From an uncultured Actinomycetes bacterium (GTDB lineage: Bacteria; Actinomycetota; Thermoleophilia; UBA2241), in contig CAVRZA010000011.1 in assembly GCA_963725665.1 (NCBI GenBank), positions 553,914 through 617,913 on the forward strand: DNA of 64,000 nucleotides, read 5' to 3'. The position numbers were made by a program, and so were the translations under genes. Below are positions 11,845 through 28,739 of this stretch, one piece after another. The notes below the pieces were generated by a model. It was not told where the DNA came from. It did no database searches and saw nothing but the letters and a program-made list of their open reading frames with translations. Numbering within the stretch: position 1 is the stretch's first letter; each line of letters starts with the position of its first letter.

Positions 11845-12013
11845 TTGCTCAGGCGTCGACAGCGTGGTGGTCTTCTGGGACACGGGACCTCACAAAGCCT
11901 GGCGACAGGCAACGTGCGTTTCGTACACCTTGGCGAGCCTCGACGCAAGCTGTCGGGCGCTTGGGGGCCGGTGACGCTCGAAGAGGAGAGCCGCTCCTGC
12001 GGTCAGCGACCCG

Positions 12014-13178
12014 TCACGAGGCCTCGACCACGTCAGCCGTGGCCTTGCTGGGGTCGGCCACCACCAGGACGTCGATGTAGTCGGCCGTCGCGCATGATCT
12101 TGGCGATGAGCGACGAACCCCGGAGCGACCTCGTCGAAGCGGGATCGCTTCGACTGGCCCATGAGGACGTACGTGGCCCGGTTCTCCCGGGCGAACTTCA
12201 GGATCTCGTCGGCCTCCGAATCACCGTTGAGCTCTACGACCTGGCCGCCGAGATTGCGGGCCAGGTCGTACGCTCGTTGAGCTCGCGCTGATGGCCGCCG
12301 AGCGTCTCGCCCGCCGTGTGCACGTGGACGACCCAGAAGTGCCCCTGCAGACGCTTGGCAAGCCTGTAGCCACGGCGCACCAGCTTCTTCGCGACCGAAC
12401 CGCCTTTGATGCAGACGACCACTCGGTCTTCCGTCGCCCAGGGCGCTGTGGTCTCGTGGTCCTCCAAGTAACTCTCGAGGGTCTCGTCGACCTCCTCGGC
12501 GGTCTTGCGCAGCGCCAGCTCGCGCAGCGCCACGAGGTTTCCGCGGCGGAAGAAGTTGCGCAGCGCGCCGGGGATCTTCTCGAGGTCGTAGACCACGCCG
12601 CGGTTGAGGCGGTTGATGAGGGCGTCGGCTGTGAGGTCGACGAGCACCACCTCGTCGGCGCGATCGAGCATGGAGTCGGGTATCGTCTCGCGCACGCGCA
12701 CGCCGGTGATCTCGAAGACGGTGTCGTTCAGGCTCTCGAAGTGCTGCACGTTGACAGTGGAGATGACGTCTGATGCCGGCGTCGAGGATGTCGTCCACGC
12801 TCTGCCAGCGCTTCTCGTGGTCGGTCCCGGGGATGTTGGTGTGCGCCAGTTCGTCGACGAGGACGACACCGGGACGACGGGCGATGACCGCGGCGGTGTC
12901 GATCTCCTCGAAGACTTACGGCCGCGATAGTCGATTGCCTTGCGGGAAGGATCGGCAGTCCTTCGGCGAGTTCCTCTATCGCCTGCCGACCGTGCGTCTC
13001 GACGAAGCCGACGACGATGTCCTCGCCGCGCGACAGGCGGCGGTGGGCCTCGAGCAGCATGGTGAACGTCTTGCCGACACCGGGGGCGTAGCCGAGGAAG
13101 ATCTTGTGGCGCCCGGCTTGCGGAGCGTCTTCAGGGTGAAGAGGTCGCCGGTCTCTGGGCTGAGTCGTCCTCTTCCAT
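12014..13178 (-). pseudogene. Stand-alone KdpD N-terminal sensor domain + Usp domain protein; about 8 frame breaks
   Basis: Pieces read HKIFLGYAPGVGKTFTMLLEAHRR, VLVDELAHTNIPGTDHEKRW, STVNVQHFESLND, LVALRELALRKTAEEVD, then Usp-like VVCIKGG...YVLMGQSKRSRF...DVLVVADP. No kinase domain follows. Confidence 0.75.
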
Positions 13179-13183
13179 CACAC

Positions 13184-13766
13184 TCACTGTAGGGCGTCTG
13201 TGCGGCGTCGAGGGCGAGATTCAAAGCGGAGCACGTTCACACGAGGTTCGCCAAGAAAGCCGAGCTGGCGTCCGGTGGTGTGTCGTCGATAAGCGCGAGC
13301 ACGGCGGAGACGGTCGTGCCGCGGGCTGCGGCGACGCGCGCCGCCTGCGCGCGCGCGTTGGCGATGGTGATGTCGGGATCGAGACCACTCGCCGAGGTCG
13401 TCACCATGTCGATCGGCACGGCGCCGAATCGCAGCCCGGGGTTGGCGGCGATCTCCTGCTTGACGGAGGTCTGACCCGGTCGGCGAGCGTCTTGTTGGTC
13501 GGCCCCAGGTTCGAGAACGACGAGGCCATCGCGTCGTAGCCCTCCCCGGCGGCGGATAGGCGAGGCTGGAAGTACTTGGCCGCCGTGAAGTTCTGTCCGA
13601 TCAGGCTTCGACCCGATCGACTGCTGCCGTTCTTCTTGACGAGGCTGCCGTTGGCCTTGCCGGGAAAGATGACCTGTGCCAGGCCGGTCATGACCAGCGG
13701 GTAGATGATGCCCGCTATCACTGCTGTGACGATCGTCATGCGAATCGAGATCCAGACGTATTTCAC
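13184..13766 (-). pseudogene. kdpC: K+-transporting ATPase subunit C, at least 3 frame breaks in the 3' half
   Basis: MKYVWISIRMTIVTAVIAGIIYPLVMTGLAQ...NLGPTNKTLADRV, then PIDMVTTSASGLDPDIT... and GFLGEPRVNVL / LNLALDAA in other frames. The exact stop is unresolved. Confidence 0.7.
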
Positions 13767-13784: not shown

Positions 13785-15839
13785 CTAGGTCGTCAAGTGA
13801 GTCGCCACGAGGATCAGGTCGATGATCTTGATGCCGATGAAGGGAGCTACCACTCCCCCGAGGCCGTAGACGAGCAGGTTGTAGCGCAGCAGCCGGGCGG
13901 CCGGCCAGGGCCGGTATTTCACGCCACGCAAGGCGAGTGGGATCAGCATGACGATGATGATCGCGTTGAAGATCACCGCCGAGAGCACGGCGCTGTGCGG
14001 CGAGTGCAGGCCCATGACGTTGAGGCTCGAGAGCTCGGGGAACGAGACCATGAACATCGCCGGGATGATGGCGAAGTACTTGGCCACGTCGTTGGCGATG
14101 CTGAACGTTGTCAATGCGCCGCGGGTGATGAGGAGCTGCTTGCCGATGGCCACGATCTCGATGAGCTTTGTCGGGTTGGAGTCGAGGTCGACCATGTTGC
14201 CGGCCTCCTTGGCGGCCGACGTGCCGGTGTTCATGGCGACGCCGACGTCGGCCTGCGCCAGCGCCGGCGCGTCGTTCGTGCCGTCCCCTGTCATAGCGAC
14301 CAGCTTCCCCTGCCGCTGCTCGCTACGGATGAGCTCCATCTTGGTCTCGGGCGTCGCCTCGGCAAGGAAGTCGTCAACACCGGCCTCCTTGGCGATGACC
14401 GCCGCCGTGAGCGGGTTGTCCCCCGTGATCATGACGGTGCGGATGCCCATGGCGCGCAGCTCATCGAAGCGCTCGCGCATACCGCCCTTCACGATGTCCT
14501 TCAGGTGGATGACGCCAAGGACCTTCTGGTCGCTCGCGACCGCCAGGGGCGTCCCGCCCTGCAGCGATACCTTCTCGATCGTCTCTTCGAGCAGGGGTGG
14601 GACCTCGCTGCCACGCTGGCGCACCCAGCTGATGATGGCGTCGCCGGCGCCCTTGCGCACAGCGTGCCCGTTCAGGTCGATGCCGCTCATGCGCGTCTGC
14701 GCGCTGAACTCGATGAAGGTGGCCTTCTCTGGGTCGATGTGACGCCCGCGAATGCCGTAGTTCTTGGCCAACACAACGATCGAGCGGCCCTCGGGCGTCT
14801 CGTCGGCGAGGGAGGCGAGCTGCGCGGCGTCGGCGAGCTCCTCCTCTGACACGCCGGACATGGGGATGAACTCGGAGGCCTGCCGGTTGCCCAGCGTTAT
14901 CGTCCCCGTCTTGTCGAGCAGCAACGTGTCGACGTCGCCCGCGGCCTCCACCGCGCGCCCCGACATGGCGAGTACGTTGTGGCGCACGAGCCGGTCCATG
15001 CCTGCGATGCCGATCGCCGAGAGTAGCCCGCCGATGGTCGTCGGGATGAGGCACACAAGCAAGGCGATCAGGACCGTGGCTGACTGGGCCGCATTGCTGT
15101 AGATCGCGAACGGCTGCAACGTCATGATCACGATCACGAAGATGATCGTCAGGCCGGCGAGGAGGATCGTCAGGGCGATCTCGTTGGGGGTCTTCTGGCG
15201 CTGGGCGCCCTCGACGAGGGCGATCATGCGATCGAGGAACGTCTCGCCGGGGTCGGAGGTGATCCTGACCCGAATCTGGTCGGACAGGACTTTCGTGCCG
15301 CCGGTGACGGCGCTGCGGTCGCCGCCGCTCTCGCGGATGACCGGCGCAGATTCGCCCGTGATGGCGGACTCGTCGACCGAGGCGATGCCCTCGATGATGT
15401 CGCCATCGCTGGGGATGATCTCGCCCGCCGAAACGATGACCACGTCGCCGCGGCGCAGCTGCGTCGCCGGCACCTGCTCGAGGCCGGTCTCGGTGACGAG
15501 GTTGGCGAGCGTCTCGGTCTTCATCTTGCGCAGCGCATCGGCTTGGGCCTTGCCGCGACCCTCGGCCATGGCCGTGGCGAAGTTGGCGAAGAGCACCGTG
15601 AACCAGAGCCAGCCGGCGACGGCGCCGACGAACGCCGTATCGCTGCTCGAGCGGATGAGTCCGGCTATGAAATAGTAGGTGGTGATCGCGCTGCCGACCT
15701 CGACCACGAACATGACTGGGTTGCGGGCTACGTCGCGCGGGTCAAGCTTGACGAATGAGCTGCCGATCGCCGGCCAGATGAGGTCGCGCATGGAGGCGGT
15801 CTCCCGCCGCAGGGGCTTGTCGTGGGTGTCGTCAGCCAT
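13785..15839 (-). CDS. kdpB: K+-transporting ATPase subunit B (operon 1)
   Basis: Intact 684-aa ORF with [17 protein letters not shown] and [18 protein letters not shown]. Confidence 0.95.
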
Positions 15840-15851
15840 CGCAGTCGCCCG

Positions 15852-17579
15852 TCATCCGAAGAGCTTGCCGGCGTTCATGAGGAACTGTTCGACGATCGGG
15901 CCGAGCGCCAGCGCCGGGAAGAACGTCAGCGCCCCCACGATGAGGATCACGCCCACGAGCAGCACGACGAAGATCACGCCGGTTGTGGGGAACGTACCGG
16001 GCGAGGGCGGCACCGACTTCTTGCCGGCCAGCGAGCTGGCCAGGGCCAAGCACGGGATGATGAAGAAGAAGCGCCCCCACATCATGCAGAGGCCGCCGAT
16101 CGTGCTCCAGAACCGCCCGCTGGCCGTGAGACCGGCAAAGGCGCTGCCGTTGTTGCCGGTCTGTGAGAACGTCCCGTAGAGGATCTCCGAGAGGCCGTGG
16201 GGGCCGGGGTTCAGCGCAGCCTCCTTGCCGGCCGGCAGGACGGCCGCCAGCGCGGCGAAGCCCAGGGCGGTCACGCAGTAGTACAGGACCGCAAGGACGG
16301 CGAGCTTCATCTCGCGGCCCTCGATCTTCTTGCCCAGGTACTCAGGCGTGCGGCCGACCATGAGGCCGGCGATGAACACCGCGAGAATGGCGTTGATCAG
16401 CAGTCCCATGAGGCCGACGCCGACACCGCCAAACACCACTTCCCCGAGGGCCATGTTCAGCATGGCGAAGCCACCCGCGATCGGCGTCAGGCTGTCGTGC
16501 GCGGTGTTGACCGCACCGCACGACGTGTCTGTGGTCGTGGTGGCCCAGAGGATCGACGCGGAGATCCCGAAACGGACCTCCTTGCCCTCCATGTTGCCGC
16601 CGGACTGGGTCGAGCTGAGCGTCTGATCCGCCCCAAGCTTCGTCAGGATCGGGTTGCCTCGCTGCTCGCTGGCGTACATCACCGCCACGCTCATGAGCAG
16701 GATGGCCATGGCCGCCGCGAAGAGCGCCCACCCCTGTCGCTGATTGCCCGCGAAGCGCCCGAACGTGTAGGTGAGCGAGACGGGGATGGCGAGCAGCATC
16801 AGGTCCTCGAACAGGTTGCTGAACGGCGTCGGGTTCTCGTAGGGGTGCGCCGAGTTGGCGTTGTAGGAGCCGCCGCCGTTGGTGCCCAGCTCCTTGATGA
16901 TCTCCTGCGAGGCGAACGGTCCCTGCGCTATGGTCTGCGTGATCCCCTCGACCGTGACGGCGCGCGTCGGGGCGTTGAGGTTCTGCACGACGCCCTGCGA
17001 TACGAGCACGAGCGTCCCGACGATCGAGATTGGCAGCAGCACGTAGAGGAAGCTGCGCGTGAGGTCGACCCAGAAGTTGCCCAGCTCGCGTCTTGAGTGT
17101 CGCGTGAGCCCGCGGATGAACGCTACGGCGACCGCGATGCCGACGGCGGCCGACACGAAGTTCTCGCGCGCCAGCGCGAGCATCTGCGTCAGGTAGCTCA
17201 CCTGCGTCTCGGGGACGTAGACCTGCCAGTTGGTGTTGGTCGCGAAGCTGACGGCGGTGTTGAAGGCCACCGTGGGGCTCATGTCGGGGACGTGTGCCGG
17301 GTTCAGCGGCAAGTGACCCTGGAGCCGGAGTATCAGGTAGATGAAAAGCAGGACCACGAAGTTGAAGACGAGGAGTGACACCGCGTACGCCACCACCCCC
17401 ATCTCGCGGGTCTCGTCGACGCCACACAGGCGGTAGGTCAGCCTCTCCACGGGACGAACGATGGGGTGGAGGAAGGTGCGTTCGCCGCGGAAGACGTGCG
17501 CCATGAAGAGCCCCAGGGGTTTGGCGATCAGTCCGAGCAGGACGACGTAGACGACGATCTGCAGGATCCCCCAACCCAT
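15852..17579 (-). CDS. kdpA: K+-transporting ATPase subunit A (operon 1)
   Basis: Intact 575-aa polytopic ORF with KdpA selectivity-filter-like segments (TNTNWQ, GTNGGG, NNGSAFAG). Confidence 0.95.
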   Translation of the reverse strand: MGWGILQIVVYVVLLGLIAKPLGLFMAHVFRGERTFLHPIVRPVERLTYRLCGVDETREMGVVAYAVSLLVFNFVVLLFIYLILRLQGHLPLNPAHVPDMSPTVAFNTAVSFATNTNWQVYVPETQVSYLTQMLALARENFVSAAVGIAVAVAFIRGLTRHSRRELGNFWVDLTRSFLYVLLPISIVGTLVLVSQGVVQNLNAPTRAVTVEGITQTIAQGPFASQEIIKELGTNGGGSYNANSAHPYENPTPFSNLFEDLMLLAIPVSLTYTFGRFAGNQRQGWALFAAAMAILLMSVAVMYASEQRGNPILTKLGADQTLSSTQSGGNMEGKEVRFGISASILWATTTTDTSCGAVNTAHDSLTPIAGGFAMLNMALGEVVFGGVGVGLMGLLINAILAVFIAGLMVGRTPEYLGKKIEGREMKLAVLAVLYYCVTALGFAALAAVLPAGKEAALNPGPHGLSEILYGTFSQTGNNGSAFAGLTASGRFWSTIGGLCMMWGRFFFIIPCLALASSLAGKKSVPPSPGTFPTTGVIFVVLLVGVILIVGALTFFPALALGPIVEQFLMNAGKLFG

Positions 17580-17594
17580 GGCGCTTCCGGCTGC

Positions 17595-17684
17595 CTAGAA
17601 CTTCTCTGGTCTCAGAAGGGAGTAGAAGAGGTAGATGATCAGGGCGACTGCAATGATGCCGAGGATGAGGTAGGCGACGTTCAC
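17595..17684 (-). CDS. kdpF: K+-transporting ATPase subunit F (operon 1)
   Basis: My translation gives MNVAYLILGIIAVALIIYLFYSLLRPEKF (29 aa) from GTG 17684. It has the typical KdpF C-terminal LLRPExF and ends 15 nt before kdpA. Confidence 0.8.
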   Translation of the reverse strand: MNVAYLILGIIAVALIIYLFYSLLRPEKF

Positions 17685-17690
17685 CTTCGT

Positions 17691-17780
17691 CTACAGGCGA
17701 GGAGCCAGCCGAGCGTAGGCGAGAGAGAGGAAGAAGAACGCCATCACCACGGCGACGCAGGCAACATCACCCATCCCCAT
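17691..17780 (-). CDS. Second small hydrophobic peptide upstream of kdpF (29 aa)
   Basis: MGMGDVACVAVVMAFFFLSLAYARLAPRL. ATG 17780 is preceded by GGAAGGAG. The stop lies 6 nt before the kdpF GTG. Confidence 0.5.
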   Translation of the reverse strand: MGMGDVACVAVVMAFFFLSLAYARLAPRL

Positions 17781-17947
17781 GCTCCTTCCGCTGTCGGCCT
17801 TGTTCTTCCCGAGCATACAACCAGATAACGACTACACAAACCGTAGCCTGTTCGGCCCGGGCCACCGGGCGTCGGCCCGCGTGCGACGCAATTCGGCGGC
17901 GCTCCTTTGGGTGCACCGTGATCCGAGCGTAACTGTCCTTGGGCACA

Positions 17948-17989
17948 GTGATGCCCGCCGTCCTCGGGCGGGAGGACGGCGGGCATCAC
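17948..17989 (-). terminator. 18-bp perfect hairpin after the small membrane protein gene and upstream of the kdp-1 promoter region
   Basis: GTGATGCCCGCCGTCCTC-gggcgg-GAGGACGGCGGGCATCAC. Confidence 0.55.
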
Positions 17990-18004
17990 TCTGACTAAGG
18001 CGCG

Positions 18005-18265
18005 TCAGTGACGGTAGGAGTGCGCAAACCTCGGAGTGCGCACGTACCTGGCGGGCGCAGGCTTCTCGGCCGGACGCTCGTCGGCCAAACGCTCCTGGGC
18101 CGGGCGCTTCGCCAGGATGAGACGGGCGACCTCACTCTGCTCCCGCCGATAGCGCTTGATGGCGCGCTCCTCGAAGATGAGCCAGAGAAGGTAGACCAGC
18201 GCACCCGCTGCCGCGACGGTCGCTGCGACCGCCACGAACGCAATCAAATCTGCTGCAACTGCCAC
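18005..18265 (-). CDS. Small membrane protein sp1 (86 aa): one N-terminal TM helix + basic tail
   Basis: GTG 18265 is preceded by GGGAGG (7-nt spacer). Sequence: MAVAADLIAFVAVAATVAAAGALVYLLWLIFEERAIKRYRREQ...FAHSYRH. It is the C-terminal part of track ORF 18005..18454. A composite promoter lies directly upstream. Confidence 0.6.
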   Translation of the reverse strand: MAVAADLIAFVAVAATVAAAGALVYLLWLIFEERAIKRYRREQSEVARLILAKRPAQERLADERPAEKPAPARYVRTPRFAHSYRH

Positions 18266-18287
18266 TTCTGCACCTCCCAACTCCCGC

Positions 18288-18353
18288 AGCGTACCCCGGC
18301 GTATGTTAAGAAGCCGTAAAGACCACGCCGGTCCATGTGAATGTTTCCTAAAG
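18288..18353 (-). promoter_or_regulatory. Composite promoter copy C (drives sp1): four phased half-sites + GGG-TACGCT
   Basis: In gene orientation: CTTTAG-gaaac-ATTCAC-N15-CTTTAC-ggctt-CTTAAC-atacgccgGGG-TACGCT. Confidence 0.65.
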
Positions 18354-18472
18354 GCCAAGCGAGCGCCCCCGAGGCCGAGAGGTTGGCGGCAGCGGTCGCC
18401 GCGGTCTGCCCGCCGGCTCGCGAGTGCCGATTGGGACCTGCAGTCGTCTGCCACTCCGACGCCGCAGGCTTC

Positions 18473-18553
18473 CTACTCGTGCGTGGTCAGCTTGTATCCG
18501 GCAAGCAGGAAAATGGCCATCAGAGCCAGCCACACAAGTGCTTCCAGAGCCAC
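18473..18553 (-). CDS. Small hydrophobic peptide sp2 (26 aa)
   Basis: TAAGGAGGTG lies 6 nt before GTG 18553. Sequence: MALEALVWLALMAIFLLAGYKLTTHE. The overlapping track ORF 18348..18560 is Arg-rich junk. Confidence 0.45.
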   Translation of the reverse strand: MALEALVWLALMAIFLLAGYKLTTHE

Positions 18554-18578
18554 CGTCCACCTCCTTACATGCACAAGC

Positions 18579-18644
18579 AGGGTACCCAGGGTCCTCTTAA
18601 GGCCTCGTGAAGCGAGGGCGTAGAGGCGTGAAGTTTGCGTGAAC
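18579..18644 (-). promoter_or_regulatory. Composite promoter copy A (drives sp2)
   Basis: In gene orientation: GTTCAC-gcaaa-CTTCAC-N15-CTTCAC-gaggc-CTTAAG-aggaccctGGG-TACCCT. Confidence 0.65.
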
Positions 18645-18847
18645 ACCCTGAGCGTCGTTCGCGACCACAGGCGATCGAAGATCAGGGGGTCGAGTCACAC
18701 ACGGTCCGCCCAACCGGAGAGGCACGAGCGCGATCGAGGAAGAGCGCCACGCTCGGTTCCGTCTGCCCCGCGCTGGGCTTGCCGACGGCCTTTAGATCTG
18801 CCGACCCTCGTTCCTCTCTGCGCCTCTGTCGGCGCTGCGGGGACCGG

Positions 18848-18913
18848 CTTTATCTAATCTTTATGCACTTGTGACTACGTTTTACTAATGGTTAACGTCG
18901 TTTCGGGAACATG
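18848..18913 (+). promoter_or_regulatory. Composite promoter copy for the kdp-2 operon
   Basis: CTTTAT-ctaat-CTTTAT-N15-TTTTAC-taatg-GTTAAC-gtcgtttcGGG-AACATG. The spacing is the same as in the other copies, but the -10 position deviates from TAnnnT. Confidence 0.6.
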
Positions 18914-18996
18914 TCGCGCAGTCGGTTCAGTTGATGTCCAGTGCCGGGGGCTGCCGTCGCCGGCCTTGAACGAGTCAGCCATGGAGGTCGGAGCTG

Positions 18997-19080
18997 ATGC
19001 CCGATTTCGTTGCAGTACTTATCGCCTTGGCGTGCTTCGCGGTGCTGTTCGTGCTCCTCTACGCCCTGGAGCGCGTGTGA
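18997..19080 (+). CDS. KdpF-like small hydrophobic peptide upstream of kdpF (27 aa)
   Basis: MPDFVAVLIALACFAVLFVLLYALERV. GGAGG lies 9 nt upstream. The stop overlaps the kdpF ATG (TGATG). Confidence 0.55.
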   Translation: MPDFVAVLIALACFAVLFVLLYALERV

Positions 19081-19169
19081 TGGCCGCCGCAGACGTCTTC
19101 GGATTGGCGATCGCGGTGGCGATCGCCGTGTATCTCCTCTACGCACTCTTCAGAGGGGAGCGATTCTGA
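19080..19169 (+). CDS. kdpF: K+-transporting ATPase subunit F (operon 2)
   Basis: MAAADVFGLAIAVAIAVYLLYALFRGERF (29 aa). The stop overlaps the kdpA ATG (TGATG). Confidence 0.8.
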   Translation: MAAADVFGLAIAVAIAVYLLYALFRGERF

Positions 19170-20860
19170 TGACCCCCGAAGGTATCGGCCAGATCGCCCT
19201 CTACGTCGCCCTCCTGATCGCGTTCGCCTATCCACTAGGCCGTTACTACATGGCCTGGGTCTACACGCACGGGCGCGACGATCCTGTGGAGCGGGGCATG
19301 TTCCGGCTGTTCGGGCGTGGCAGCGGCAGCGAGCAGGACTGGAAGAGCTATGCCAAGACTGTGCTGATCTTCAGTCTCGTCTTCTCCGGCGTGCTCTATG
19401 CGATCATGCGTCTCCAGGCCCGCCTGTTCCTCAACCCGGACCACCTGGCCGCGGTTCCCTGGCACATCTCGCTCAACACAACCGCTAGCTTCATCACGAA
19501 CACCAATTGGCAGTACTACGCCGGCGAATCGACGATGTCGTACCTGAGCCAGATGGCCGGCCTGGCGGTGCAGAACTTCGTCTCCGCCGCCGTGGGCATG
19601 GCGGTGCTGGCGGCCGTCGTGCGCGGCTTCTCGCGCCGCTCGCGGCACGAATTGGGCAACTTCTGGCGCGATCTCTATCGCTCCCTGGTGTACATCCTGC
19701 TGCCACTTTCGATCGTCGTCGCGGTGATCCTGATCTCGCAGGGCGTGCCCCAGACGTTCCACGCGCACGCCACGGCGACCACGCTGCAGGGCGCCCATCA
19801 GACGATCGCCCGTGGCCCCGTCGCCTCGCAGATCGCCATCAAGCAACTGGGCACCAACGGCGGCGGCTACTACAACTCGAACTCCGCTGTTCCTCTCGAG
19901 AATCCGACAGGGCTCTCGAACTTCGCCGAGATGCTCGCGATCCTGCTGATCCCCGCCGCCCAGGTGTTCATGTTCGGGCGCATGGTGCGAGCCCGCCGCC
20001 ACGCCTGGATGGTTTTCGCGGCGATGTTCGTCATGTTCGTGATCGGTATCGGCGTCAACCTGGCGGCCGAGCAGCACGGTTCGCAGGTGCTGCGCGGCGC
20101 AGGCGTGAACATCGCCGCGGGCCAGGGGCAGAGCGGCGGCAACATGGCCGACAAGGAGGTCCGCTTTGGCATCGCCGCCACAACGAACTGGACGGTCGCT
20201 ACGAGCGACGCCTCGAATGGCTCGGTAAACGGCGGTTTCGATGCCAACACCGCCATTGGCGGCGCCGTGCCCCTCGTCAACCTCTTCGTGGGTGAGGTCA
20301 TCTTCGGCGGCGTCGGCTCCGGACTGTACGGCATGTTCTTCTACATCGTGATCGCCGTGTTCATCGCCGGCCTGATGGTAGGTCGCACGCCGGAGTGGCT
20401 GGGCAAGAAGATCGAGGCGCGTGAGATCAAATACGCCGCTATCGGCGCGCTCTTCGTGCCTACCATGGTGCTCGTCATGACTGCGATCGCCGTGGCCGCG
20501 CCGGCGGGGCTCGCCTCGATCTTCAACCCGGGCGCCCACGGCTTCACGGAGGCGCTCTACGCGTACGACTCGCAGGCGAACAACAACGGCAGCGCCTTCG
20601 CTGGCTACGGGGCGACCACCTTCTCCGCCACCTTTGGCACGATCGCGCTCTACCTCGGCCGCTTCGCGCCGCTGCTGGCGGCGCTGGCCCTCGGGGGCTC
20701 GCTCGCGGGGAAGAAGGTAGCACCCGAGTCCGCGGGGACCTTCCGCACCGACGGCCCTACCTTCGTCGTCCTGCTCGTCGGCGTCATTGCGCTCACCGCC
20801 GGTCTGATGATCCTGCCCGCACTGAGCCTCGGGCCAATCGTGGAGTCACTGATGCACTGA
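19169..20860 (+). CDS. kdpA: K+-transporting ATPase subunit A (operon 2)
   Basis: MTPEGIGQIALYVALLIAFAYPLGRYY... This is track ORF 19010..20860 trimmed to ATG 19169. It is a paralog of the operon-1 KdpA. Confidence 0.95.
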   Translation: MTPEGIGQIALYVALLIAFAYPLGRYYMAWVYTHGRDDPVERGMFRLFGRGSGSEQDWKSYAKTVLIFSLVFSGVLYAIMRLQARLFLNPDHLAAVPWHISLNTTASFITNTNWQYYAGESTMSYLSQMAGLAVQNFVSAAVGMAVLAAVVRGFSRRSRHELGNFWRDLYRSLVYILLPLSIVVAVILISQGVPQTFHAHATATTLQGAHQTIARGPVASQIAIKQLGTNGGGYYNSNSAVPLENPTGLSNFAEMLAILLIPAAQVFMFGRMVRARRHAWMVFAAMFVMFVIGIGVNLAAEQHGSQVLRGAGVNIAAGQGQSGGNMADKEVRFGIAATTNWTVATSDASNGSVNGGFDANTAIGGAVPLVNLFVGEVIFGGVGSGLYGMFFYIVIAVFIAGLMVGRTPEWLGKKIEAREIKYAAIGALFVPTMVLVMTAIAVAAPAGLASIFNPGAHGFTEALYAYDSQANNNGSAFAGYGATTFSATFGTIALYLGRFAPLLAALALGGSLAGKKVAPESAGTFRTDGPTFVVLLVGVIALTAGLMILPALSLGPIVESLMH

Positions 20861-21447
20861 TGCGTACGCTCCTTCGCACACTCATCGCCGTCGTCGCGCT
20901 CACCGCGGTCTTCGGCCTCGCCTACCCTGCGATCATGGTCGGTTTCGCATCGCTCTCGTTCTCGGGCAAGTCACAAGGCAGCCTGATCTACCACAACGGC
21001 AGCGTGGTGGGTTCGCGCCTGGCGGCGCAGGAATTCACCGACCCCCGCTACTTTCATGAGCGGCCCTCGGCTACGTCGCCCGCGTACAACGCCGGTGGGA
21101 CGACCTTCGCCAACCTGGGGCCCACAAACCCCGATCTCACAAAAGCGGTGCGCGAGCAGGCGCAGGCGATCCTCAAGCTCGAGGGTCCCTACAACCCGGG
21201 TCTGACGATCGGCGATATCCCCGTCGACGCCGTCACGACCTCCGGCTCCGGCATCGACCCTCATGTCTCACCTGCTTACGCGGAGCTGCAGGCTCCTCGC
21301 ATCGCCGCTGTGCGGCAACTGCCTCTCGCCACGGTCGAGAGGCTGGTCAAAGACAACACTGACGGTCGCAGCCTAGGCTTCCTCGGTGAGCCTGGTGTGA
21401 ACGTCCTCGAGCTCAACCTTGCGCTCGACAGGCTAGGAGGCAAGTAG
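20860..21447 (+). CDS. kdpC: K+-transporting ATPase subunit C (operon 2), placed between kdpA and kdpB
   Basis: 195 aa with [23 protein letters not shown] and [18 protein letters not shown]. Confidence 0.95.
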
Positions 21448-21449
21448 GC

Positions 21450-23510
21450 ATGGCAAGGCGCTCAAGCGTCTTCTCGCGCGAGCTCGCGCTCGCAGCGGTG
21501 CGCGATTCCTTCCCCAAGCTCAACCCACGCAACCAGATCAGAAACCCGGTCATGTTCGTGGTCGAGATCGGCAGCGTCATCACAACCGCGATCTTCTTCA
21601 TCGACCTCGTCCGCGGTCAGACCGGCCAGCTCTGGTTCGTCGGAACTATCTCGGTCTGGCTCTGGCTCACGGTGCTGTTCGCGAACTTCGCGGAGGCGAT
21701 CGCCGAGGGCCGCGGAAAGGCACAGGCAAATGCCCTGAGGGCGACCAGGACGACCACGATCGCCACCCGGCGGCGCGAGAGCGGTGCCCTCGAGCAGGTC
21801 CCCGCGCCGGAGCTCTCGCGTGGGGACGTCGTCATCGTTACGGCGGGCGAGATCATTCCCGCCGACGGCGAAGTGATCGAAGGCATCGGCTCGGTCGACG
21901 AGTCGGCGATCACTGGCGAGTCGGCCCCCGTGATCCGCGAAGCCGGCGGCGATCGCTCTGCCGTCACTGGCGGCACCAGGCTCCTCTCAGACCGACTCGT
22001 CGTCGAAGTCACCCAGGAGGCGGGCAAGTCGTTCCTCGAGAGGATGATCGCACTGGTCGAGGGCGCGGAGCGGCGAAAGACGCCGAACGAGATCGCGCTG
22101 AACATCCTGCTCGCTGGCCTGACGATCACCTTTCTCGTCGCGGTCGTCACCTTGCGGCCCTACGGACTCTATGCGCACACCAGCCTTTCGCAGACGGTGC
22201 TGATCGCACTGCTCGTCGCCCTGATCCCGACCACGATCGGTGCCCTGCTCTCAGCGATCGGCATCGCCGGTATGGACCGGCTCGTGCAGCGCAACGTGCT
22301 AGCCATGTCAGGGCGCGCAGTCGAGGCGTCGGGCGACGTTGACGTGTTGCTCCTCGACAAGACCGGCACGATCACGCTGGGCAATCGACAGGCGGTCAAC
22401 TTCATCCCCGCTCCCGGTGTGGACGAGCGGGAGTTCGCCGAGGTCGCGCAGCTGGCGTCGTTGGCCGATGAAACCCCCGAGGGTCGTTCCATCGTCGTTC
22501 TCGCAAAGGAACGCTTCAACCTGCGTGAGCGCACCCTGGGGGAAGAGGAAGTCGAGTTCGTGCCGTTCACTGCCGTCACACGTATGAGCGGCGTCAACCT
22601 CGAGGGCAGCATGATCCGCAAAGGCGCCGCCGACGCAGTAAGAGGCTTCATCGAGGAACGCGGCGGCACCGCCATCCCCGCCGAAATCCACGCGACCGTA
22701 CAGAGGGTCGCCGAGGAGGGCGGGACGCCCCTCGTCGTCGCCAAGGACGGCTCCGCACTCGGTGTCATCCAGCTGAAGGACGTCGTCAAGGGTGAGCTGC
22801 GTGAGCGCTTCGACGGCATGCGGAAGATGGGCATCCGCACCGTGATGATAACGGGCGACAATCGAGTCACCGCAGCTGTGATCGCCAAGGAGGCCGGTGT
22901 CGACGACTTCCTTGCGGAGGCAACGCCGGAGGCAAAACTCGCACTCATCCGCGAGGAGCAGGCGCGCGGCCGTATGGTCGCCATGACCGGTGACGGCACT
23001 AACGATGCCCCGGCGCTGGCCCAGGCCGACGTGGGCGTGGCCATGAACGCCGGGACCTCCGCCGCCAAGGAAGCCGGCAACATGGTCGACCTCGACAACA
23101 ACCCGACGAAGCTGATCGAGATAGTAGAGGTCGGCAAGCAGCTCCTGATCACCCGCGGCGCCTTGACCACGTTCTCGATAGCCAACGACGTGGCCAAGTA
23201 CTTCGCCATCCTGCCGGCGATGTTCGCCTTCACGTATGCGACGCATCCCGGCGAGCGCGGGCCGCTCAACTCGCTCAATATCATGCACCTGGGAGATCCG
23301 AAGAGCGCGATCATCTCCGCGATCATCTTCAACGCCCTGATCATCGTGGCGCTCATCCCCCTCGCCCTCAAAGGCGTCCGCTACCGCGCCATCGGCGCCA
23401 CTGCGCTGCTGCGGCGCAACCTCCTGATCTACGGGCTCGGCGGCATCGTCTTGCCGTTCGTGGGGATCAAGCTGATCGACCTCGTCGTCCACAACGTGCT
23501 TGGAGCTTAG
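21450..23510 (+). CDS. kdpB: K+-transporting ATPase subunit B (operon 2)
   Basis: 686 aa with [17 protein letters not shown] and [18 protein letters not shown]. Confidence 0.95.
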
Positions 23511-23617
23511 TGCAGCGGTAGCGCGGCCCGTCGAGTGTGTGGCAGGGCAATGGCCGGTCCTCCGTGCGGCAGAGCGAGCAGAGTCCCAGCATCTCTTTTG
23601 ATGCTGTCGTGGAGCGC

Positions 23618-23683
23618 ATTAAGCGCATCTTTATGCCGGCAGAACTGCCCTTTACGGGTGATTAACGCGGTGCCGGGTAGCTT
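23618..23683 (+). promoter_or_regulatory. Composite promoter copy for the cNMP/CBS/DUF294 gene
   Basis: ATTAAG-cgcat-CTTTAT-N15-CTTTAC-gggtg-ATTAAC-gcggtgccGGG-TAGCTT. Confidence 0.65.
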
Positions 23684-23776
23684 CTGCGGGCGGGCTGCGT
23701 CCTTGGCGGCGCAACCCGCTGTCTCGTGCGCCGTTTTCGCGGGGCGCTGCACCGGACGTCAAGCAGGAGGCGGGCT

Positions 23777-25612
23777 GTGGCGGTCACAGCTCTCAAGAAG
23801 AGCCCAACGAATGAGCGGGTCGGATTCCTCTCGCGCCTCGAACTGTTCAAGGGACTCGACCAGGACGAGCTCGAGCGGATAGCAGCGGCGATCTCGGTGC
23901 AGATCGCCGCTGCCGGAGAGGCGGTCCAAGTGGAGAGCGGCATCCCCGGCGACCACCTGTTCGTTGTGCTTGACGGCACCCTCGAGCTCATCCACAAGGG
24001 CGCCGTCGTGGCCATCCTCTCCAAAGGGGAGGTGTTCGGACACTCTACCCTGCTCACCGGACTGCCACCCGAGTTCACGACACGTGCGGGAACCCCTTCC
24101 ACGCTCTGGCGCATCCCGAAAGACATCGCCGTCGACCTCCTGAGTCGGCCTGCAGGGGTGAGGTTCGTCGCCGACACGCTGCGCGAGCAGCTGATCCAAG
24201 CGGCGCGATCCACGAACGGGGCTGCCGATCTCGCTGCGCGGCCGGTGGTGTCGCTGGTGCGCGGAGCACCCGTGTTCTGCGAGGCGGACGCGACGATCCG
24301 TGAGGCGGCGACGCTCATGAGCGCCAGCAGAGCGAGTGCGCTCTTGGTGCGGACGGTCGGGGGTCTTGGCATCGTCACTGACTCCGACCTGCGCGAGAAG
24401 GTCGTGGCCGGCGACGTTCCCCGAGACGCCGCGGTCACTGCCGTCATGACGACCCCGGTGGAGAGCGTCGCTGCCGACCGGCTGGGTCCCGAGGCCGCGG
24501 TCCAGATGATGGCCGCCGGCGTCAACCATCTCGTTGTCGAGGACAAGGCCGGCAGGCTCGTCGGCGTCCTGTCGGCCGCGGACCTCGTTTCCCTCGACGC
24601 GCGCAGCCCCTTCGCCCTGCGGCGCCGGATTCAGGAGGCACGGAACGAAGACGATCTTGTGGCGGCATCCAGGGATCTACCTGCCCTGTTCGCCGAGCTG
24701 CTCGACGCCCGGGTCGATGCCCCTGCTGTGGCTCGGATCCTGACCGTGCTCTGCGATGCCATGACAGTGCGTCTGCTGGAGCTCTTCTTCGACCGGCATG
24801 GCCAGCCACCAGTCGGCTACGCCTGGCTTTTGTTCGGCAGCAGCGCCCGGAACGAGCTCACTCTGGCCTCCGACCAGGACAACGGCATCGCCTACGAGGA
24901 CGGCGACGACCCCCGCGTCGAGGACTACTTCCGCGAGCTGGCCGAGGACGTCAACGACGGGCTGGTCCGCAGCGGCTTCGCCGCCGACCCCCACGGCACG
25001 GTGGCGCAGAACTGGCAGTGGCGCCTGCCCCTCTCGCTGTGGCGCTCCGTCTTCGCCCGCTCGCTCGAGGACAGGGACGTCAATCGCCTCGCCCGTGCCA
25101 GCGTCGCCTTCGACTTCCGGCAGCTGGCCGGGGACTTGGCGGTGGCCGGGCCACTGACCGAGATCATGCGCGAGGCGCCCGGCCACCGCCGCTTCATGAG
25201 CGGTCTCGCCCAGCTCGCGACGCGCAACCCCCTGCCGTTGTCTGGCCTGCGCCAGCGGGTGGCGGGTCGGCTCGACGTGAAACGGGAGTGCCTGCGGCCG
25301 ATTCAGAACTTCGCCCGCTACCAGGCCCTGCTGGCGGGCATCAGCGCGCACTCCACCCTAGATCGACTCGCGGGGGTGCGCGAGGCGGGCCTGCTGGACC
25401 GTGAGAGCGAGCAGTCGCTGAGCGACGCCTTCACGATCCTGCTGGGCCTGCAGCTGCGACATCACGGCGACGCCCTGGGCGAGGGGCGCCCCCTCGACAA
25501 CGAGCTCTACGTGGAGAGCCTTCGCCCGCTCACACGGGCCAGCCTCCAGGAGGCGCTGCGCGTGGTGGCGGCCACACAGCGGCGCTTCCCGCGGCTGCCG
25601 GCCCTGGGCTGA
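23777..25612 (+). CDS. cNMP-binding + tandem CBS + DUF294-type nucleotidyltransferase protein
   Basis: GTG 23777 follows AGGAGG. The N-terminus FLSRLELFKGLDQDELERIA...GEVFG is a cNMP-binding fold. Two CBS-like segments follow, then the nucleotidyltransferase motif LLFGSSARNELTLASDQDNGI and a C-terminal helical domain. Confidence 0.8.
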   Translation: MAVTALKKSPTNERVGFLSRLELFKGLDQDELERIAAAISVQIAAAGEAVQVESGIPGDHLFVVLDGTLELIHKGAVVAILSKGEVFGHSTLLTGLPPEFTTRAGTPSTLWRIPKDIAVDLLSRPAGVRFVADTLREQLIQAARSTNGAADLAARPVVSLVRGAPVFCEADATIREAATLMSASRASALLVRTVGGLGIVTDSDLREKVVAGDVPRDAAVTAVMTTPVESVAADRLGPEAAVQMMAAGVNHLVVEDKAGRLVGVLSAADLVSLDARSPFALRRRIQEARNEDDLVAASRDLPALFAELLDARVDAPAVARILTVLCDAMTVRLLELFFDRHGQPPVGYAWLLFGSSARNELTLASDQDNGIAYEDGDDPRVEDYFRELAEDVNDGLVRSGFAADPHGTVAQNWQWRLPLSLWRSVFARSLEDRDVNRLARASVAFDFRQLAGDLAVAGPLTEIMREAPGHRRFMSGLAQLATRNPLPLSGLRQRVAGRLDVKRECLRPIQNFARYQALLAGISAHSTLDRLAGVREAGLLDRESEQSLSDAFTILLGLQLRHHGDALGEGRPLDNELYVESLRPLTRASLQEALRVVAATQRRFPRLPALG

Positions 25613-26035: not shown

Positions 26036-26749
26036 GTGAGCGGAATCCCCGAACGTCCGACTCGCATCCTTGTCGTCGACGACGAGGAGCAGATACGGCG
26101 CGCCGTTGGCTCGATTCTCCGTGCCAGAGGCTATGCACTTGACCTTGCGGCGACTGCCCACGAGGCGCTGCTCACCGCCATCGACCATCCGCCCGATCTC
26201 GTCGTGCTCGACCTCGCGCTGCCCGATCGCAGCGGCATCGAGGTCTGTCGTGAGTTGCGCTCGTGGACGAGTGTCCCAATCCTCGTTCTGTCGGTGCGCT
26301 CTGCTGAGCACGACAAGATCCAGGCCCTGGACGAGGGGGCCGACGACTACCTGACGAAGCCCTTCTCGGCGGGAGAACTGTTGGCGCGCGTGCGCGCCCT
26401 CCTGCGACGGGCGGCGTCACGGACGATACCGCCGCCCGTGGTGGAGGTGGGCGATCTCGTGGTCGACATCGCGCGGCGGCGCGTGACTCTCGCGGGCGAC
26501 GATGTATCCCTCACGCCGACCGAGTTCGACATCCTCGCCTATCTGGCCCGCAACGCCGATCTCGTCGTGACGCAGCGTCAGATTCTCGAGGAGGTATGGG
26601 GACCTGAGTGGGCCGAAGACGCGCAGACGTTGCGCGTGCACGTCAGCCACCTACGCAGGAAGATCGAGCCGACGCCAAGCGGCCGTCGCTACATCATCAC
26701 GGAGCCGCGCATAGGCTTTAGGTTCTCGACCGCTGAGGACTCTACTTGA
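26036..26749 (+). CDS. kdpE: OmpR-family response regulator, KdpE-like
   Basis: Receiver domain (ILVVDDEE...DLVVLDLALPD...KP) plus a winged-helix domain (LTPTEFDILAYLARN...LRVHVSHLRRKIE). Confidence 0.85.
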   Translation: MSGIPERPTRILVVDDEEQIRRAVGSILRARGYALDLAATAHEALLTAIDHPPDLVVLDLALPDRSGIEVCRELRSWTSVPILVLSVRSAEHDKIQALDEGADDYLTKPFSAGELLARVRALLRRAASRTIPPPVVEVGDLVVDIARRRVTLAGDDVSLTPTEFDILAYLARNADLVVTQRQILEEVWGPEWAEDAQTLRVHVSHLRRKIEPTPSGRRYIITEPRIGFRFSTAEDST

Positions 26750-28319
26750 CCCGTGACCGTATCGGCAGCGAGACGGTGAAGCGGGCCCCTGTGGCCTGTG
26801 CCGGCTCCACCCAGACCTCGCCGCCGTGCGCTTTGACGATCTCACGAGTGATAGCGAGGCCGAGGCCGGTACCGGAGGGGGCTTTCGTCCCGGCGCGCTG
26901 CCCCCGGTAGAATTTCTCGAAGATCCGCTCCCGCTCCTCCTCGCCGACGCCGGGCCCCTCGTCCTCGACCCACATCTCCACTGAGCCCACACCAGCTCTC
27001 GCGCCCACTCGCACGGGCGACGACTCGCCCCCGTAGATGATGGCATTCTCGATGAGGTTCTGGAGGACGCGCGCCCATTGCACGAAGTCGACCTCGATGA
27101 GAGGCAGGTCATCGGGCAGCGAGACCTCCACGCGAGCGCGCTGGTGGGCCGGAAGGGCGTCCGTGCTGGCGGAGACGATGTCGGAGAGCTCGTAGAGGTC
27201 CAGTGACGGTTCCCACGAGCGGGCCTCGAGCCGTGAGAGATCGAGCAGTGAGTTGATGCTGTTGTTCAGACGGGCGATGTCGTCGACGATGCCGCGCAGT
27301 TCGTCGTGGACGAGGCGCTCGTCCCAGGCGACATCGCTCTCGAGGAGGTTGCTGACAGTTGCAGTGAGGGCCGCCAGCGGCGTCTTGAGCTCGTGCGACA
27401 CAGAAGAGAGCAGACTCGATTTGAGTCGATCCGCCTCCCGCAGCGCCTCGGCGCGGGTCGCCTTGGCCTGAAGGTTCTGGCGCTCGAGAAAGACGCCGAT
27501 CAGGTTGGCAAGCGATGCCATGAGCCGCGCCTCGGCAGCGTCATACGGGTGCCCGTTGGGCCGGCCGCGCACGGCGAGCACACCCGTGACGCCCGCGCCC
27601 GAGTGGAGCGGGATGAAGGTGCCATTGATGCCTACGAAGGCCTCAGCTGCCGGTTCCCGTAAGAAGGAGGCTCCTTGGAGTTGCTCCTGTCGATGGCTCG
27701 CTGGAAAGCCGAGCGTGCAGTCGTGGCTGTAGGCCCACTGAGCTCCGTCCACAGTGTCTCGGTCGGGCGGCCCGGAAGGTAGCGAGGCGCAGAAGGACAG
27801 CAACCCGCTATCGCTGCCTATGAAGAGCGCCGCCGAGGATGCGCCCACGACATCGATGATCTCTTCGAGGACGGTGTAGGCCATCGTCTCGGTGGACGTT
27901 TCCGAGACCAAGCGGGCGCTCAACCTGTTGAGCACTGCAGTCTCATGCTCTCGTGCGTGGGCTCGCTCCTCGCGGTTCCGCATGCGACCTGTTTGCACCC
28001 CCATGGCCAGACCCACGGCGAGGAAGGCCAGCAGCGACAGGTAATCCTGGGGATCCCTCACCACGAGGGTGTGGTAAGGAGGGAGAAAGAAGAAGTCCCA
28101 GGCGAGGAAGGCGAGGATTGCGGCGACCACCGCCGGCCCCGTGCCGCTCGCCCCCGCGACCAGGACGACTATGAGAAGGTAGAGGAGCGCCCACTGCCCC
28201 TTGGCGAAGTGGTCGCGGCCAGGGAGAAAGATGGCCGTCGACACTGCGATTGCCAGGACGGCGAGCACGTAGCCGTGACGGGCGAGTCGCCTCTGCAGGT
28301 CTTTGACCGTGACCCTCAT
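26742..28319 (-). CDS. kdpD: Sensor histidine kinase corresponding to the C-terminal half of KdpD (DUF4118 TM domain-GAF-HisKA-HATPase)
   Basis: TM block LLYLLIVVLVAG...AWDFFFLPPYHTL, H-box SSVSHELKTPLAAL, N/G boxes NLIENAIIYG and GTGLGLAI. There is no KdpD-N/Usp part. The 3' end overlaps kdpE by 8 nt, convergently. The start could be 28319 or 28328. Confidence 0.85.
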   Translation of the reverse strand: MRVTVKDLQRRLARHGYVLAVLAIAVSTAIFLPGRDHFAKGQWALLYLLIVVLVAGASGTGPAVVAAILAFLAWDFFFLPPYHTLVVRDPQDYLSLLAFLAVGLAMGVQTGRMRNREERAHAREHETAVLNRLSARLVSETSTETMAYTVLEEIIDVVGASSAALFIGSDSGLLSFCASLPSGPPDRDTVDGAQWAYSHDCTLGFPASHRQEQLQGASFLREPAAEAFVGINGTFIPLHSGAGVTGVLAVRGRPNGHPYDAAEARLMASLANLIGVFLERQNLQAKATRAEALREADRLKSSLLSSVSHELKTPLAALTATVSNLLESDVAWDERLVHDELRGIVDDIARLNNSINSLLDLSRLEARSWEPSLDLYELSDIVSASTDALPAHQRARVEVSLPDDLPLIEVDFVQWARVLQNLIENAIIYGGESSPVRVGARAGVGSVEMWVEDEGPGVGEEERERIFEKFYRGQRAGTKAPSGTGLGLAITREIVKAHGGEVWVEPAQATGARFTVSLPIRSRVK

Positions 28320-28469
28320 GCCAAACACACTCTATCGCTGACGGAGGCCCCGGTGGACCTGGCAGACAGTGCCGACGGGGAGCCAGCACACGCGGCTGCA
28401 GCGCGTGTGTGCTTGGATTTCAGGAGCGAAGCTCAGAAAGGAAGCCCTTGAAGGGCGAGCTTCCCGGGC

Positions 28470-28697
28470 TCAGCGCGCGCGATAGGCCGTCACGGCGGTG
28501 CGCCGCTCGGGCGAGCGGCTGAGCTTGCCGCGGACGACTTCGGCTGGCTTGCGTCCGAGCCGGTGAACGCTGACCCTCGCGCGCTGACGAAGAGGTCGGA
28601 CAGTGGACTTCTCGAGGAGGACCATGGCCGCATACGTGAGTCCCAGCACCCACGCTGTCGCGGCCGCAAACAGAAGCACGTCGATGATAAGCTTCAC
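28470..28697 (-). CDS. Small membrane protein sp3 (75 aa): N-terminal TM helix + basic tail, directly upstream of the kinase
   Basis: MKLIIDVLLFAAATAWVLGLTYAAMVLLEKSTVRPLRQRAR...TAYRAR. GTG 28697 is preceded by GAAGG. Same architecture as sp1. Confidence 0.6.
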   Translation of the reverse strand: MKLIIDVLLFAAATAWVLGLTYAAMVLLEKSTVRPLRQRARVSVHRLGRKPAEVVRGKLSRSPERRTAVTAYRAR

Positions 28698-28739
28698 GTC
28701 CAACCTTCAGTCCCCAAGCCAAGTAGGCGATTCGTAATT

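Follow-up and report, generated by a model that had tools for sequence, protein, structure and literature searches.

Small membrane proteins encoded in the regulons of two-component systems are a known kind, represented by KdpF, by MgrB and SafA, and by MgtS and MgtR. The last two are induced under cation limitation by the cognate PhoQ/PhoP system. The eukaryotic FXYD proteins, phospholamban and sarcolipin, each composed of one transmembrane helix and a short charged cytoplasmic segment, bind a P-type ATPase. Here, we analyse a 64-kilobase (kb) stretch of DNA (the window; 68.6% GC) from contig CAVRZA010000011.1 of an uncultured Thermoleophilia bacterium (assembly GCA_963725665.1). It carries two divergent operons for the Kdp pump, kdp1 running down the minus strand from 17774 and kdp2 up the plus strand from 18997. 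Between them lie two minus-strand open reading frames (ORFs), sp1 and sp2, which an original prediction, made by reading the DNA, had proposed to encode small membrane proteins, each behind its own composite promoter.

In the Kdp literature that we searched, KdpF was the only small membrane protein to turn up; it stabilises the pump complex (PMC12648545). MgtS and MgtR, of 30-31 residues, regulate the Mg2+ P-type ATPase MgtA and MgtC; they interact with cation transporters, whose FtsH-dependent degradation they control, and the MgrB gene is activated by the response regulator of the same system on which MgrB feeds back (both PMC12648545). As for regulation, the Escherichia coli KdpE half-sites are TTTATA and TTTACA, 5 base pairs (bp) apart, with an invariant TT (PMC3264566). 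Our analysis suggests that sp1 and sp2 are single-pass membrane micro-proteins of a K+-limitation (KdpD/KdpE-type) regulon and serve as accessory partners of the pump, a reading that we hold to be reasonably probable.

Coding evidence for sp1 and sp2

The sp1 coding sequence (CDS; 18005-18265, minus strand) begins with GTG at 18265-18263, preceded at a distance of 5 nucleotides (nt) by the Shine-Dalgarno (SD) sequence GGGAGGTG (18278-18271, minus strand), which is identical in the relatives L003 and L004. It encodes 86 residues ending in ...AHSYRH. The sp2 CDS (18473-18553, minus strand) begins with GTG at 18553-18551, 4 nt downstream of the SD sequence TAAGGAGGTG (18567-18558, minus strand), of which AAGGAGG is kept in L003 and L004. 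Its 26-residue product, (M)ALEALVWLALMAIFLLAGYKLTTHE, consists of little beyond a single hydrophobic helix, MALEALVWLALMAIFLLAGYKLTTHE. Both genes, the first with its transmembrane helix and basic tail and the second with its very strong SD sequence, were found as originally described and at the same coordinates. At this GC content, open frames of such length are insignificant in themselves, so the weight falls on comparative data.

The two ORFs recur in place across relatives that form two subclades, represented by about 11 soil and sediment metagenome contigs. A word-index protein search with sp1 returned its own protein and one homologue with 87% identity, and phmmer searches against 1.84 billion representatives returned only P0002, P0003 and P0004 (87%, 59% and 49% identity), all of them small (77-96 residues) and matched over their full length. 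On the contig of each homologue, sp1 immediately precedes, in the same orientation, a hairpin and then p27 (a short ORF discussed below), kdpF and kdpA; the divergent kdp2 is present in L003 as well, and the kinase and regulator genes of L004 are found just upstream. A pattern scan of JGI metagenome contigs for sp1 relatives found none. The sp2 relatives came from reading loci fetched via sp1 or kdpA: orthologues of exactly 26 residues lie upstream of sp1 in L003 (MVFVGLVWLALMAAMLLVGYELAAHR) and L004 (MAFFGLVWLALLGLILFVGYELRTHT), and W8, L9, L11, L16, Y20 and H25 are invariant across the sp2 homologues.

Probing with kdpA1 retrieved a single close genome, L006, a Thermoleophilia metagenome-assembled genome with 87% KdpA identity, the others reaching at most 62%. 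It belongs to the second subclade (L006, L086, L088 and L089), where a 67-72-residue sp1-like protein, detected by the sp1 hidden Markov model (HMM) at E = 0.0014, is encoded in the same place; an sp1-like gene is found on the L087 and P0008 contigs too. The sp2-like gene of this subclade encodes 30 residues in L006 and L088 (MFLFGVLWLVLLAAELAIAYEFLKTRIRHH) and is called as 35 residues in L086 and L089. It is divergently transcribed and followed by the DUF294 gene.

Among the window, L003 and L004, the spacers were 44-57% identical, the sp1 and sp2 CDSs 59-70%, the promoters 65-73%, the hairpin 77-84% and kdpF 89-93%. In the sense frame, the ratio of nonsynonymous to synonymous differences per site (pN/pS) was 0.43-0.60 for sp1 and 0.32-0.50 for sp2 (pS 0.80 and pN 0.26 for sp2 between the window and L003), and omega was 0.07 between the sp2-like genes of L006 and L088. 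Synonymous sites are close to saturation, and the peptide is nonetheless retained. The other frames gave ratios of about 0.8-2.9, with 1.2-1.3 for the open antisense ORF over sp1; the exception is a wobble-sharing antisense frame that mimics the sense frame but is interrupted by stop codons. Indels in sp1, of 3 and 30 nt, preserve the frame. Relatives conserve the ORFs, and not merely the DNA, which is the comparison originally suggested: the frames are kept together with the promoters and under purifying selection in the sense frame. On these sequence comparisons, both sp1 and sp2 are very probably real protein-coding genes.

The same data speak to the alternative that the ORFs are incidental, in which case the promoters would drive non-coding RNAs or act as decoy sites and the frames would follow from the high GC content. 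Frames do open by chance at 68.6% GC, ORFs of about 100 residues overlap sp1 on the antisense strand as well, and a run search for the region gave DNA metagenomes only. We nevertheless consider this explanation highly improbable. Start, stop and length are all conserved, a strong and correctly spaced SD sequence occurs in all relatives, purifying selection is specific to the sense frame, with a pN/pS of 1.2-1.3 in the overlapping open antisense frame, indels are in frame and every homologue has a hydrophobic helix. No Rfam family matched either: the whole window gave two transfer RNAs only at the gathering threshold, and the sp1/sp2 region at E <= 1 gave just a chance microRNA-precursor match to the hairpin and no riboswitch or small-RNA family.

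Each protein falls within the class of small single-pass membrane proteins, with one helix of membrane-spanning length in at most 100 residues: sp1 has a single hydrophobic 19-mer (best grand average of hydropathy 2.30), and the best 19-residue hydropathy of sp2 is 2.23. Cys is absent from both, and both would presumably insert into the membrane. AlphaFold2, run on an eight-sequence alignment, returned sp1 as one continuous helix (residues 2-52) followed by a disordered tail, with a predicted local distance difference test score of 84-96 across the first 40 residues. Since sp1 has no K/R before the helix and 15 after it, the positive-inside rule predicts an N-out/C-in orientation. The predicted protein would then comprise an N-terminal transmembrane helix running on as a cytoplasmic helix and a disordered basic tail of about 55 residues. 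Its conserved part is the helix and juxtamembrane segment, AIAATV..A.LVYLLWLI.EE.A.KRY.R..S; downstream of the helix come a variable Pro/Glu-rich linker and a short conserved terminal R-x-AHS(Y/F)RH. No Pfam or NCBIfam model, KdpF included, matched sp1 or sp2 at E <= 1, and a comparison of the sp1 profile with PDB sequences yielded chance matches only.

Automated annotation had been expected to miss such genes or leave them hypothetical, and this is what the gene calls of L002, L003 and L004 show: sp2 is uncalled in all three, and sp1 is called without a name. The JGI record of the sp1 homologue P0002 (L001 2-235) names it 'peptidoglycan/LPS O-acetylase OafA/YrhL', for which this 77-residue fragment offers no support in its sequence.

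The composite promoter and its presumed regulator

The promoter core TTYAC-N6-TTAAS-N8-GGG occurs exactly five times in the window without mismatches, against 0.01 copies expected from shuffled sequences, and all five copies sit in the kdp locus. A position weight matrix (PWM) built from these sites found no other site above 8 bits in the window. The complete module measures 68 bp. A TAnnnT-like hexamer follows each GGG core, albeit with a deviating copy at kdp2, and a second TTnAn-N6-TTnAn pair lies about 21 bp upstream of the proximal pair. The four half-sites are thus spaced by 11, about 21 and 11 bp, which places them on one face of the DNA.

The copy preceding sp2 (P_sp2; 18578-18645, minus strand) consists of a distal TTCAC-N6-TTCAC pair, a proximal TTCAC-N6-TTAAG pair and N8-GGG-TACCCT, and it reaches about 90 nt past 18553, the upper coordinate of the region originally singled out. 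That preceding sp1 (P_sp1; 18287-18354, minus strand) has a distal TTTAG-N6-TTCAC pair, a proximal TTTAC-N6-TTAAC pair and N8-GGG-TACGCT. The remaining copies lie ahead of the kdp2 genes p27, kdpF, kdpA, kdpC and kdpB (18847-18914, plus strand), ahead of a gene for a cNMP-binding/CBS/DUF294 nucleotidyltransferase (23617-23684, plus strand; gene at 23726-25612) and, as P_sp3 (28739-28806, minus strand), ahead of sp3, which is followed by a KdpD-like histidine kinase gene. Three of the five regulon promoters (those of sp1, sp2 and sp3) therefore precede micro-protein genes, in agreement with the original count. The copies proposed for sp1 and sp2 were also found in relatives: the composite promoter stands ahead of every sp1 and sp2 orthologue examined and on both the sp1-like and sp2-like genes of the second subclade, and the architecture of P_sp2 recurs before the sp2 homologues of L003, L004, L006, L086, L088 and L089.

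A sigma-70 consensus scan of positions 17500-19200 returned no promoters, and the sp1 and sp2 promoters are of the activator type, with a TAnnnT -10 element. A KdpE-like response regulator of the OmpR family, encoded at 26036-26749 (plus strand), presumably binds the half-sites. Its best named PDB match is E. coli KdpE (4KNY, 223 bits), followed by RegX3 as the next family (174 bits), and it retains the aligned DNA-contact residues R193, R200 and T215 of the E. coli KdpE recognition helix and wing. The sites themselves, T-rich TT half-site repeats with an 11-bp period located at or upstream of -35, agree with what defines a KdpE promoter. Given this regulator and the resemblance to the E. coli KdpE half-sites, the module is most readily interpreted as a -10 element joined to a double KdpE-type operator, which the KdpE-like regulator would bind, and the sp1 and sp2 promoters would be candidates for control by K+.

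Like the E. coli kdpFABC operator, the module is built from T-rich direct repeats of 6 bp, which start with TT and have an 11-bp period. It differs in having two tandem pairs, that is, four half-sites, in that its proximal pair abuts the GGG-TAnnnT -10 element, and in being used five times as a unit, three of them before micro-protein genes. The Mycobacterium smegmatis KdpE site, an A-rich 22-mer, is unlike the window module (PMC5401905).

A further idea is that sp2, instead of being a component of the regulon, is a small hydrophobic toxin like those of type I toxin-antitoxin systems. Its 26 residues, taken up almost wholly by one hydrophobic helix, and its very strong SD sequence would suit a toxin. 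Yet sp2 stands behind the same regulator-type promoter as the pump, holds a conserved position within the kdp locus in all relatives and occurs as a single copy per locus, and neither an antisense or overlapping RNA partner nor a long structured 5' untranslated region is evident. Of all the alternatives weighed here, we give this one the least credence.

The hairpin, kdp1 and the rest of the locus

A conserved GC-rich hairpin (17937-18000, minus strand; 19 perfect pairs plus an extension) lies between sp1 and kdp1, as an inverted repeat with 29-bp arms that starts 4 nt past the sp1 stop codon. The 113-nt stretch around it folds at -60 kcal/mol (z = -6.3), and the stem is kept in relatives, with one compensatory change from C-G to U-A (L003) and one G-U pair (L001). 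An exact-pattern scan of metagenome contigs for the conserved hairpin returned none. The hairpin shares with intrinsic terminators a stable GC-rich stem-loop and lacks their adjacent U-run: no U-run follows the stem in the window (sequence CACUGUGCCCAAGG) or in L003, L004, L006 and L088, and a terminator scan did not list the hairpin. Mycobacterial RNA polymerase is said to require a U-tract for efficient intrinsic termination, reportedly a finding of Czyz et al. in mBio in 2014. The spacer between the sp2 stop and P_sp1 (18355-18472, minus strand) is not conserved (44-55% identity to L003 and L004); a terminator after sp2 was considered and rejected, the folding of this spacer (z-score +0.77) being no better than that of shuffled sequence.

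Between the hairpin and p27 of kdp1 there is no regulator site, the best proximal-module PWM score being -10.5 bits, and L004 likewise has none ahead of p27-kdpF. The single-operon locus of L086 (12 kb) has only two sites, those of its sp1-like and sp2-like genes. As kdp1 has no site of its own and L086 has these two only, P_sp1 is probably also the regulated promoter of kdp1. The arrangement suggests that sp1 is likely the first cistron of kdp1 and P_sp1 its K+-regulated promoter; P_sp3 similarly precedes sp3 and then the histidine kinase gene. The promoters had been described as private: each gene does have its own copy, whereas exclusivity is doubtful for sp1, with kdp1 lacking a site. The most parsimonious reading of the hairpin is that it would attenuate transcription or protect the sp1 RNA, with read-through into kdp1.

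A conserved element unlike the KdpE sites, GCTACGGTT-N4-TAGTC (17826-17849, minus strand), lies upstream of p27 of kdp1 and counts against P_sp1 as the operon's promoter. Over 17812-17849 (minus strand) it comprises GGCTACGGTTTGTGTAGTCGTTAT, a CTAC-N7-GTAG palindrome, followed by TATGCT, and it is also found in L001, L003 and L004. This GCTACGGTT-N4-TAGTC/TATGCT element could be an operator or an independent promoter of kdp1, and in the latter case the hairpin would be a real terminator.

The position of sp1 raises another possibility, namely that it is chiefly a leader cistron whose translation, and not its product, matters by controlling the hairpin and read-through from P_sp1 into kdp1. In every case the gene immediately precedes kdp1 in the same orientation, its stop codon lying 4-27 nt ahead of the hairpin; kdp1 is without a regulator site of its own, and sp1 shows poor conservation in its C-terminal half. 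However, the transmembrane and juxtamembrane residues are kept across homologues of 49-87% identity with pN/pS well under 1, the distance from stop to stem varies, from about 4 nt in the window through about 9 in L003 to about 25 in L004, and 86 codons are long for a leader peptide. A role chiefly as leader is improbable, and the two roles, not being mutually exclusive, may coexist.

Downstream of the hairpin, kdp1 begins with p27 (17691-17774, minus strand), a 27-residue single-helix ORF directly upstream of kdpF (17595-17684, minus strand), followed by kdpA (15852-17579, minus strand), kdpB (13785-15839, minus strand), a kdpC gene, kdpC1, and a KdpD-N/Usp gene. The last two (11890-13766, minus strand) are split over several frames, with KdpC profile positions 3-93 in one ORF and KdpD-N fragments in two others. 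Either gene decay or indel errors of long-read assembly would account for these broken frames. Many frame breaks also occur in L003, and kdpA1 of L002 is fragmented too; among the source assemblies, L003 and possibly the kdpC1/kdpD-N region of the window contain frameshifts that may be sequencing errors. L002, a near-identical strain, differs from the window by 7-10% across kdpA1 and kdpB1 and by <1% from about 17400 to 21263 (compared over 15017-21263), which points to a recombination boundary within or beside kdpA1. Because this recombination mosaic leaves <1% divergence over the intergenic region, L002 was set aside as uninformative.

On the other side, p27 of kdp2 (18997-19080, plus strand) lies directly upstream of kdpF, and the operon continues over 19083-23510 (plus strand) with kdpF, kdpA (ending at 20860), kdpC (20860-21447) and kdpB (21450-23510). 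This order, p27-kdpF-kdpA-kdpC-kdpB, with kdpC ahead of kdpB, is unusual and is shared by L002 and L003. After one HMM iteration, 74 of the 80 retrieved kdpA loci proved to have a single-helix p27-family ORF (27-30 residues, e.g. MGDVACVAVVMAFFFLSLAYARLAPRL) immediately ahead of kdpF, about 100-130 nt upstream of kdpA (L006-L085). The taxa include Acidobacteriota, Alphaproteobacteria (among them cultured Bradyrhizobium and Methylobacterium), Chloroflexota, Binataceae and others. It has no Pfam or NCBIfam family, is uncalled in L002-L004, and gave no match in a tblastn search against plasmids. In view of its presence in 74 of 80 kdpA loci, p27 could be a widespread fifth Kdp component missed by structural work based on E. 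coli.

The KdpD-like histidine kinase gene (26742-28328, minus strand) encodes DUF4118, GAF, HisKA and HATPase domains without a KdpD-N or Usp domain. The sensor is split: a separate KdpD-N/Usp gene lies at the end of kdp1 (11890-13060, minus strand) and is intact in L086. Upstream of the kinase gene, sp3 (28470-28703, minus strand) had been read from an internal Met; its actual start lies upstream, at TTG 28703 or GTG 28697, and the N-terminal part added in this way contains its transmembrane helix. It shares 37% identity with a homologue in L004 (667-921), with the helix AAWVLG(I/L)TY common to both, and a word-index protein search with sp3 found no matches. The proposed likeness of sp1 and sp3 holds for their design, a transmembrane helix with a basic tail, and fails for descent: homology was rejected on a profile-profile (hhalign) probability of 4.9%. 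The regulon further includes the putative cNMP-binding/CBS/DUF294 nucleotidyltransferase, whose gene has its own promoter copy in the window and lies downstream of the sp2-like gene in the L006 (2064-4123, minus strand), L086, L087 and L089 loci. Four of the five regulon transcription units begin with a small single-helix ORF. That sp1, sp2, sp3 and p27 form an overlooked set of extra subunits or regulators of the P-type ATPase and the split KdpD sensor is a speculative proposal, which we regard as rather unlikely.

Candidate roles and described counterparts

If sp1 and sp2 are accessory partners of the pump, the following sequence of events can be envisaged. The phosphorylated KdpE-like regulator would bind the four TT(T/C)A(C/T) half-sites on one face of the DNA, with the proximal pair standing in for a -35 element next to the GGG-TAnnnT -10 element, and would activate transcription. 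Short leaders and very strong SD sites would allow efficient translation, and the products would enter the membrane, sp1 as an N-out/C-in protein with a basic cytoplasmic tail and sp2 as a nearly bare helix. There, they may assist or regulate the Kdp P-type ATPase complexes as partners, in the manner of KdpF, MgtS/MgtR, FXYD and phospholamban. P_sp1 would also drive a K+-responsive kdp1 unit (sp1-hairpin-p27-kdpF-A-B-C), in which the hairpin, having no U-tract, would not terminate fully and would instead serve to attenuate transcription or to keep the RNA upstream of it stable.

The partner could instead be the kinase: sp1 and/or sp2 may be feedback modulators that attach to the truncated KdpD-like kinase at its membrane domain and tune its balance of kinase and phosphatase activities, as MgrB and SafA do with PhoQ. 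Each gene stands behind a regulator-type promoter, as mgrB does (PMC12648545), the kinase, being without the sensing domains of KdpD (N-terminal and Usp), could need accessory inputs, the gene immediately upstream of that of the kinase encodes sp3, a third such small membrane protein, and mycobacterial KdpF contacts KdpD in two-hybrid assays (PMC3618439). That contact, however, had no major regulatory effect (PMC3618439). Moreover, synteny links sp1 to the pump operon and not to the kinase gene in all relatives, the sp2-like gene of the L006 subclade lies upstream of the DUF294 gene and not of the kinase gene, and neither similarity to MgrB or SafA (Pfam/NCBIfam) nor periplasmic cysteines were found. 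Feedback on the kinase thus seems unlikely, though worth keeping in mind. Since every relative keeps sp1 in synteny with the pump operon, we prefer a role as partners of the pump, and we hold this preference tentatively, at somewhat less than an even chance.

Several observations weigh against the proposal that sp1 and sp2 are pump partners in a K+-limitation regulon. The best NCBIfam match of the regulator is KdpE with 235.6 bits, under the equivalog cut-off of 325 bits. The pairwise third-position tests on sp2, a very short sequence, were individually insignificant (chi-square p 0.06-0.4), and the run search for the region found three DNA metagenomes and no RNA run. The family is tiny and lineage-restricted, with about nine distinct sp1 or sp1-like sequences, and a pattern scan of other GTDB representative genomes confirmed no sp1 relative. 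The sp1 tail is variable, and the helix region alone is clearly constrained; on two independent contigs (L086 6001-6204 and L087 2941-3144), the sp1-like ORF runs into the downstream hairpin as the result of a deletion, which also takes away its conserved C-terminal RRAVLHRS motif, so the tail is dispensable at least in that subclade. The pump is a presumptive target of the two proteins, and their significance is probably bounded by a narrow, uncultured lineage.

What appears new at this locus is the presence of three unrelated micro-protein families (sp1, sp2 and sp3), without a database family, in one Kdp regulon, together with the reuse of a four-half-site KdpE-type module and an operon whose regulated promoter likely lies ahead of a micro-protein gene and not of kdpF. 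Gene callers overlook sp2 and p27 in the relatives checked (L002-L004), and p27 can be tested in cultured Bradyrhizobium or Methylobacterium.

By sequence, sp1 and sp2 stand outside the families of small membrane proteins described for two-component regulons. KdpF, the 29-residue subunit of KdpFABC, resembles them as a single-helix protein in the size class of sp2 that is encoded in the kdp locus under KdpE control. It differs in that neither sp1 nor sp2 matches PF09604 or TIGR02115 at E <= 1, two profiles that kdpF1 and kdpF2 of the window do match, with 45.5 and 29.2 bits (PF09604) and 42.8 and 30.2 bits (TIGR02115). Furthermore, sp1 and sp2 have their own promoters outside the kdpF-kdpA core, and each operon already has a kdpF. 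Rather than adjoining kdpF, sp1 is separated from kdpF1 by the hairpin, a spacer of about 160 nt and p27, and sp2 lies 207 nt further upstream. MgrB and SafA, which control the PhoQ kinase, are likewise short single-pass membrane proteins, and SafA is restricted to a narrow lineage as sp1 and sp2 are; they differ in sequence, in the conserved periplasmic cysteines, which sp1 and sp2 lack, and in that sp1 is syntenic with a pump operon instead.

MgtS and MgtR share with sp1 and sp2 the setting of small membrane peptides in cation transport, and differ in the cation (Mg2+), in the phylum and in showing no homology to them. With its predicted N-out/C-in orientation and basic tail, sp1 resembles FXYD in topology, an analogy across kingdoms without a sequence relationship. 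Should sp1 and sp2 prove to bind either the pump or the truncated KdpD, the two would count as bacterial equivalents of P-type ATPase regulators such as FXYD and phospholamban, and would offer a compact model for the control of a sensor kinase without its usual input domains.

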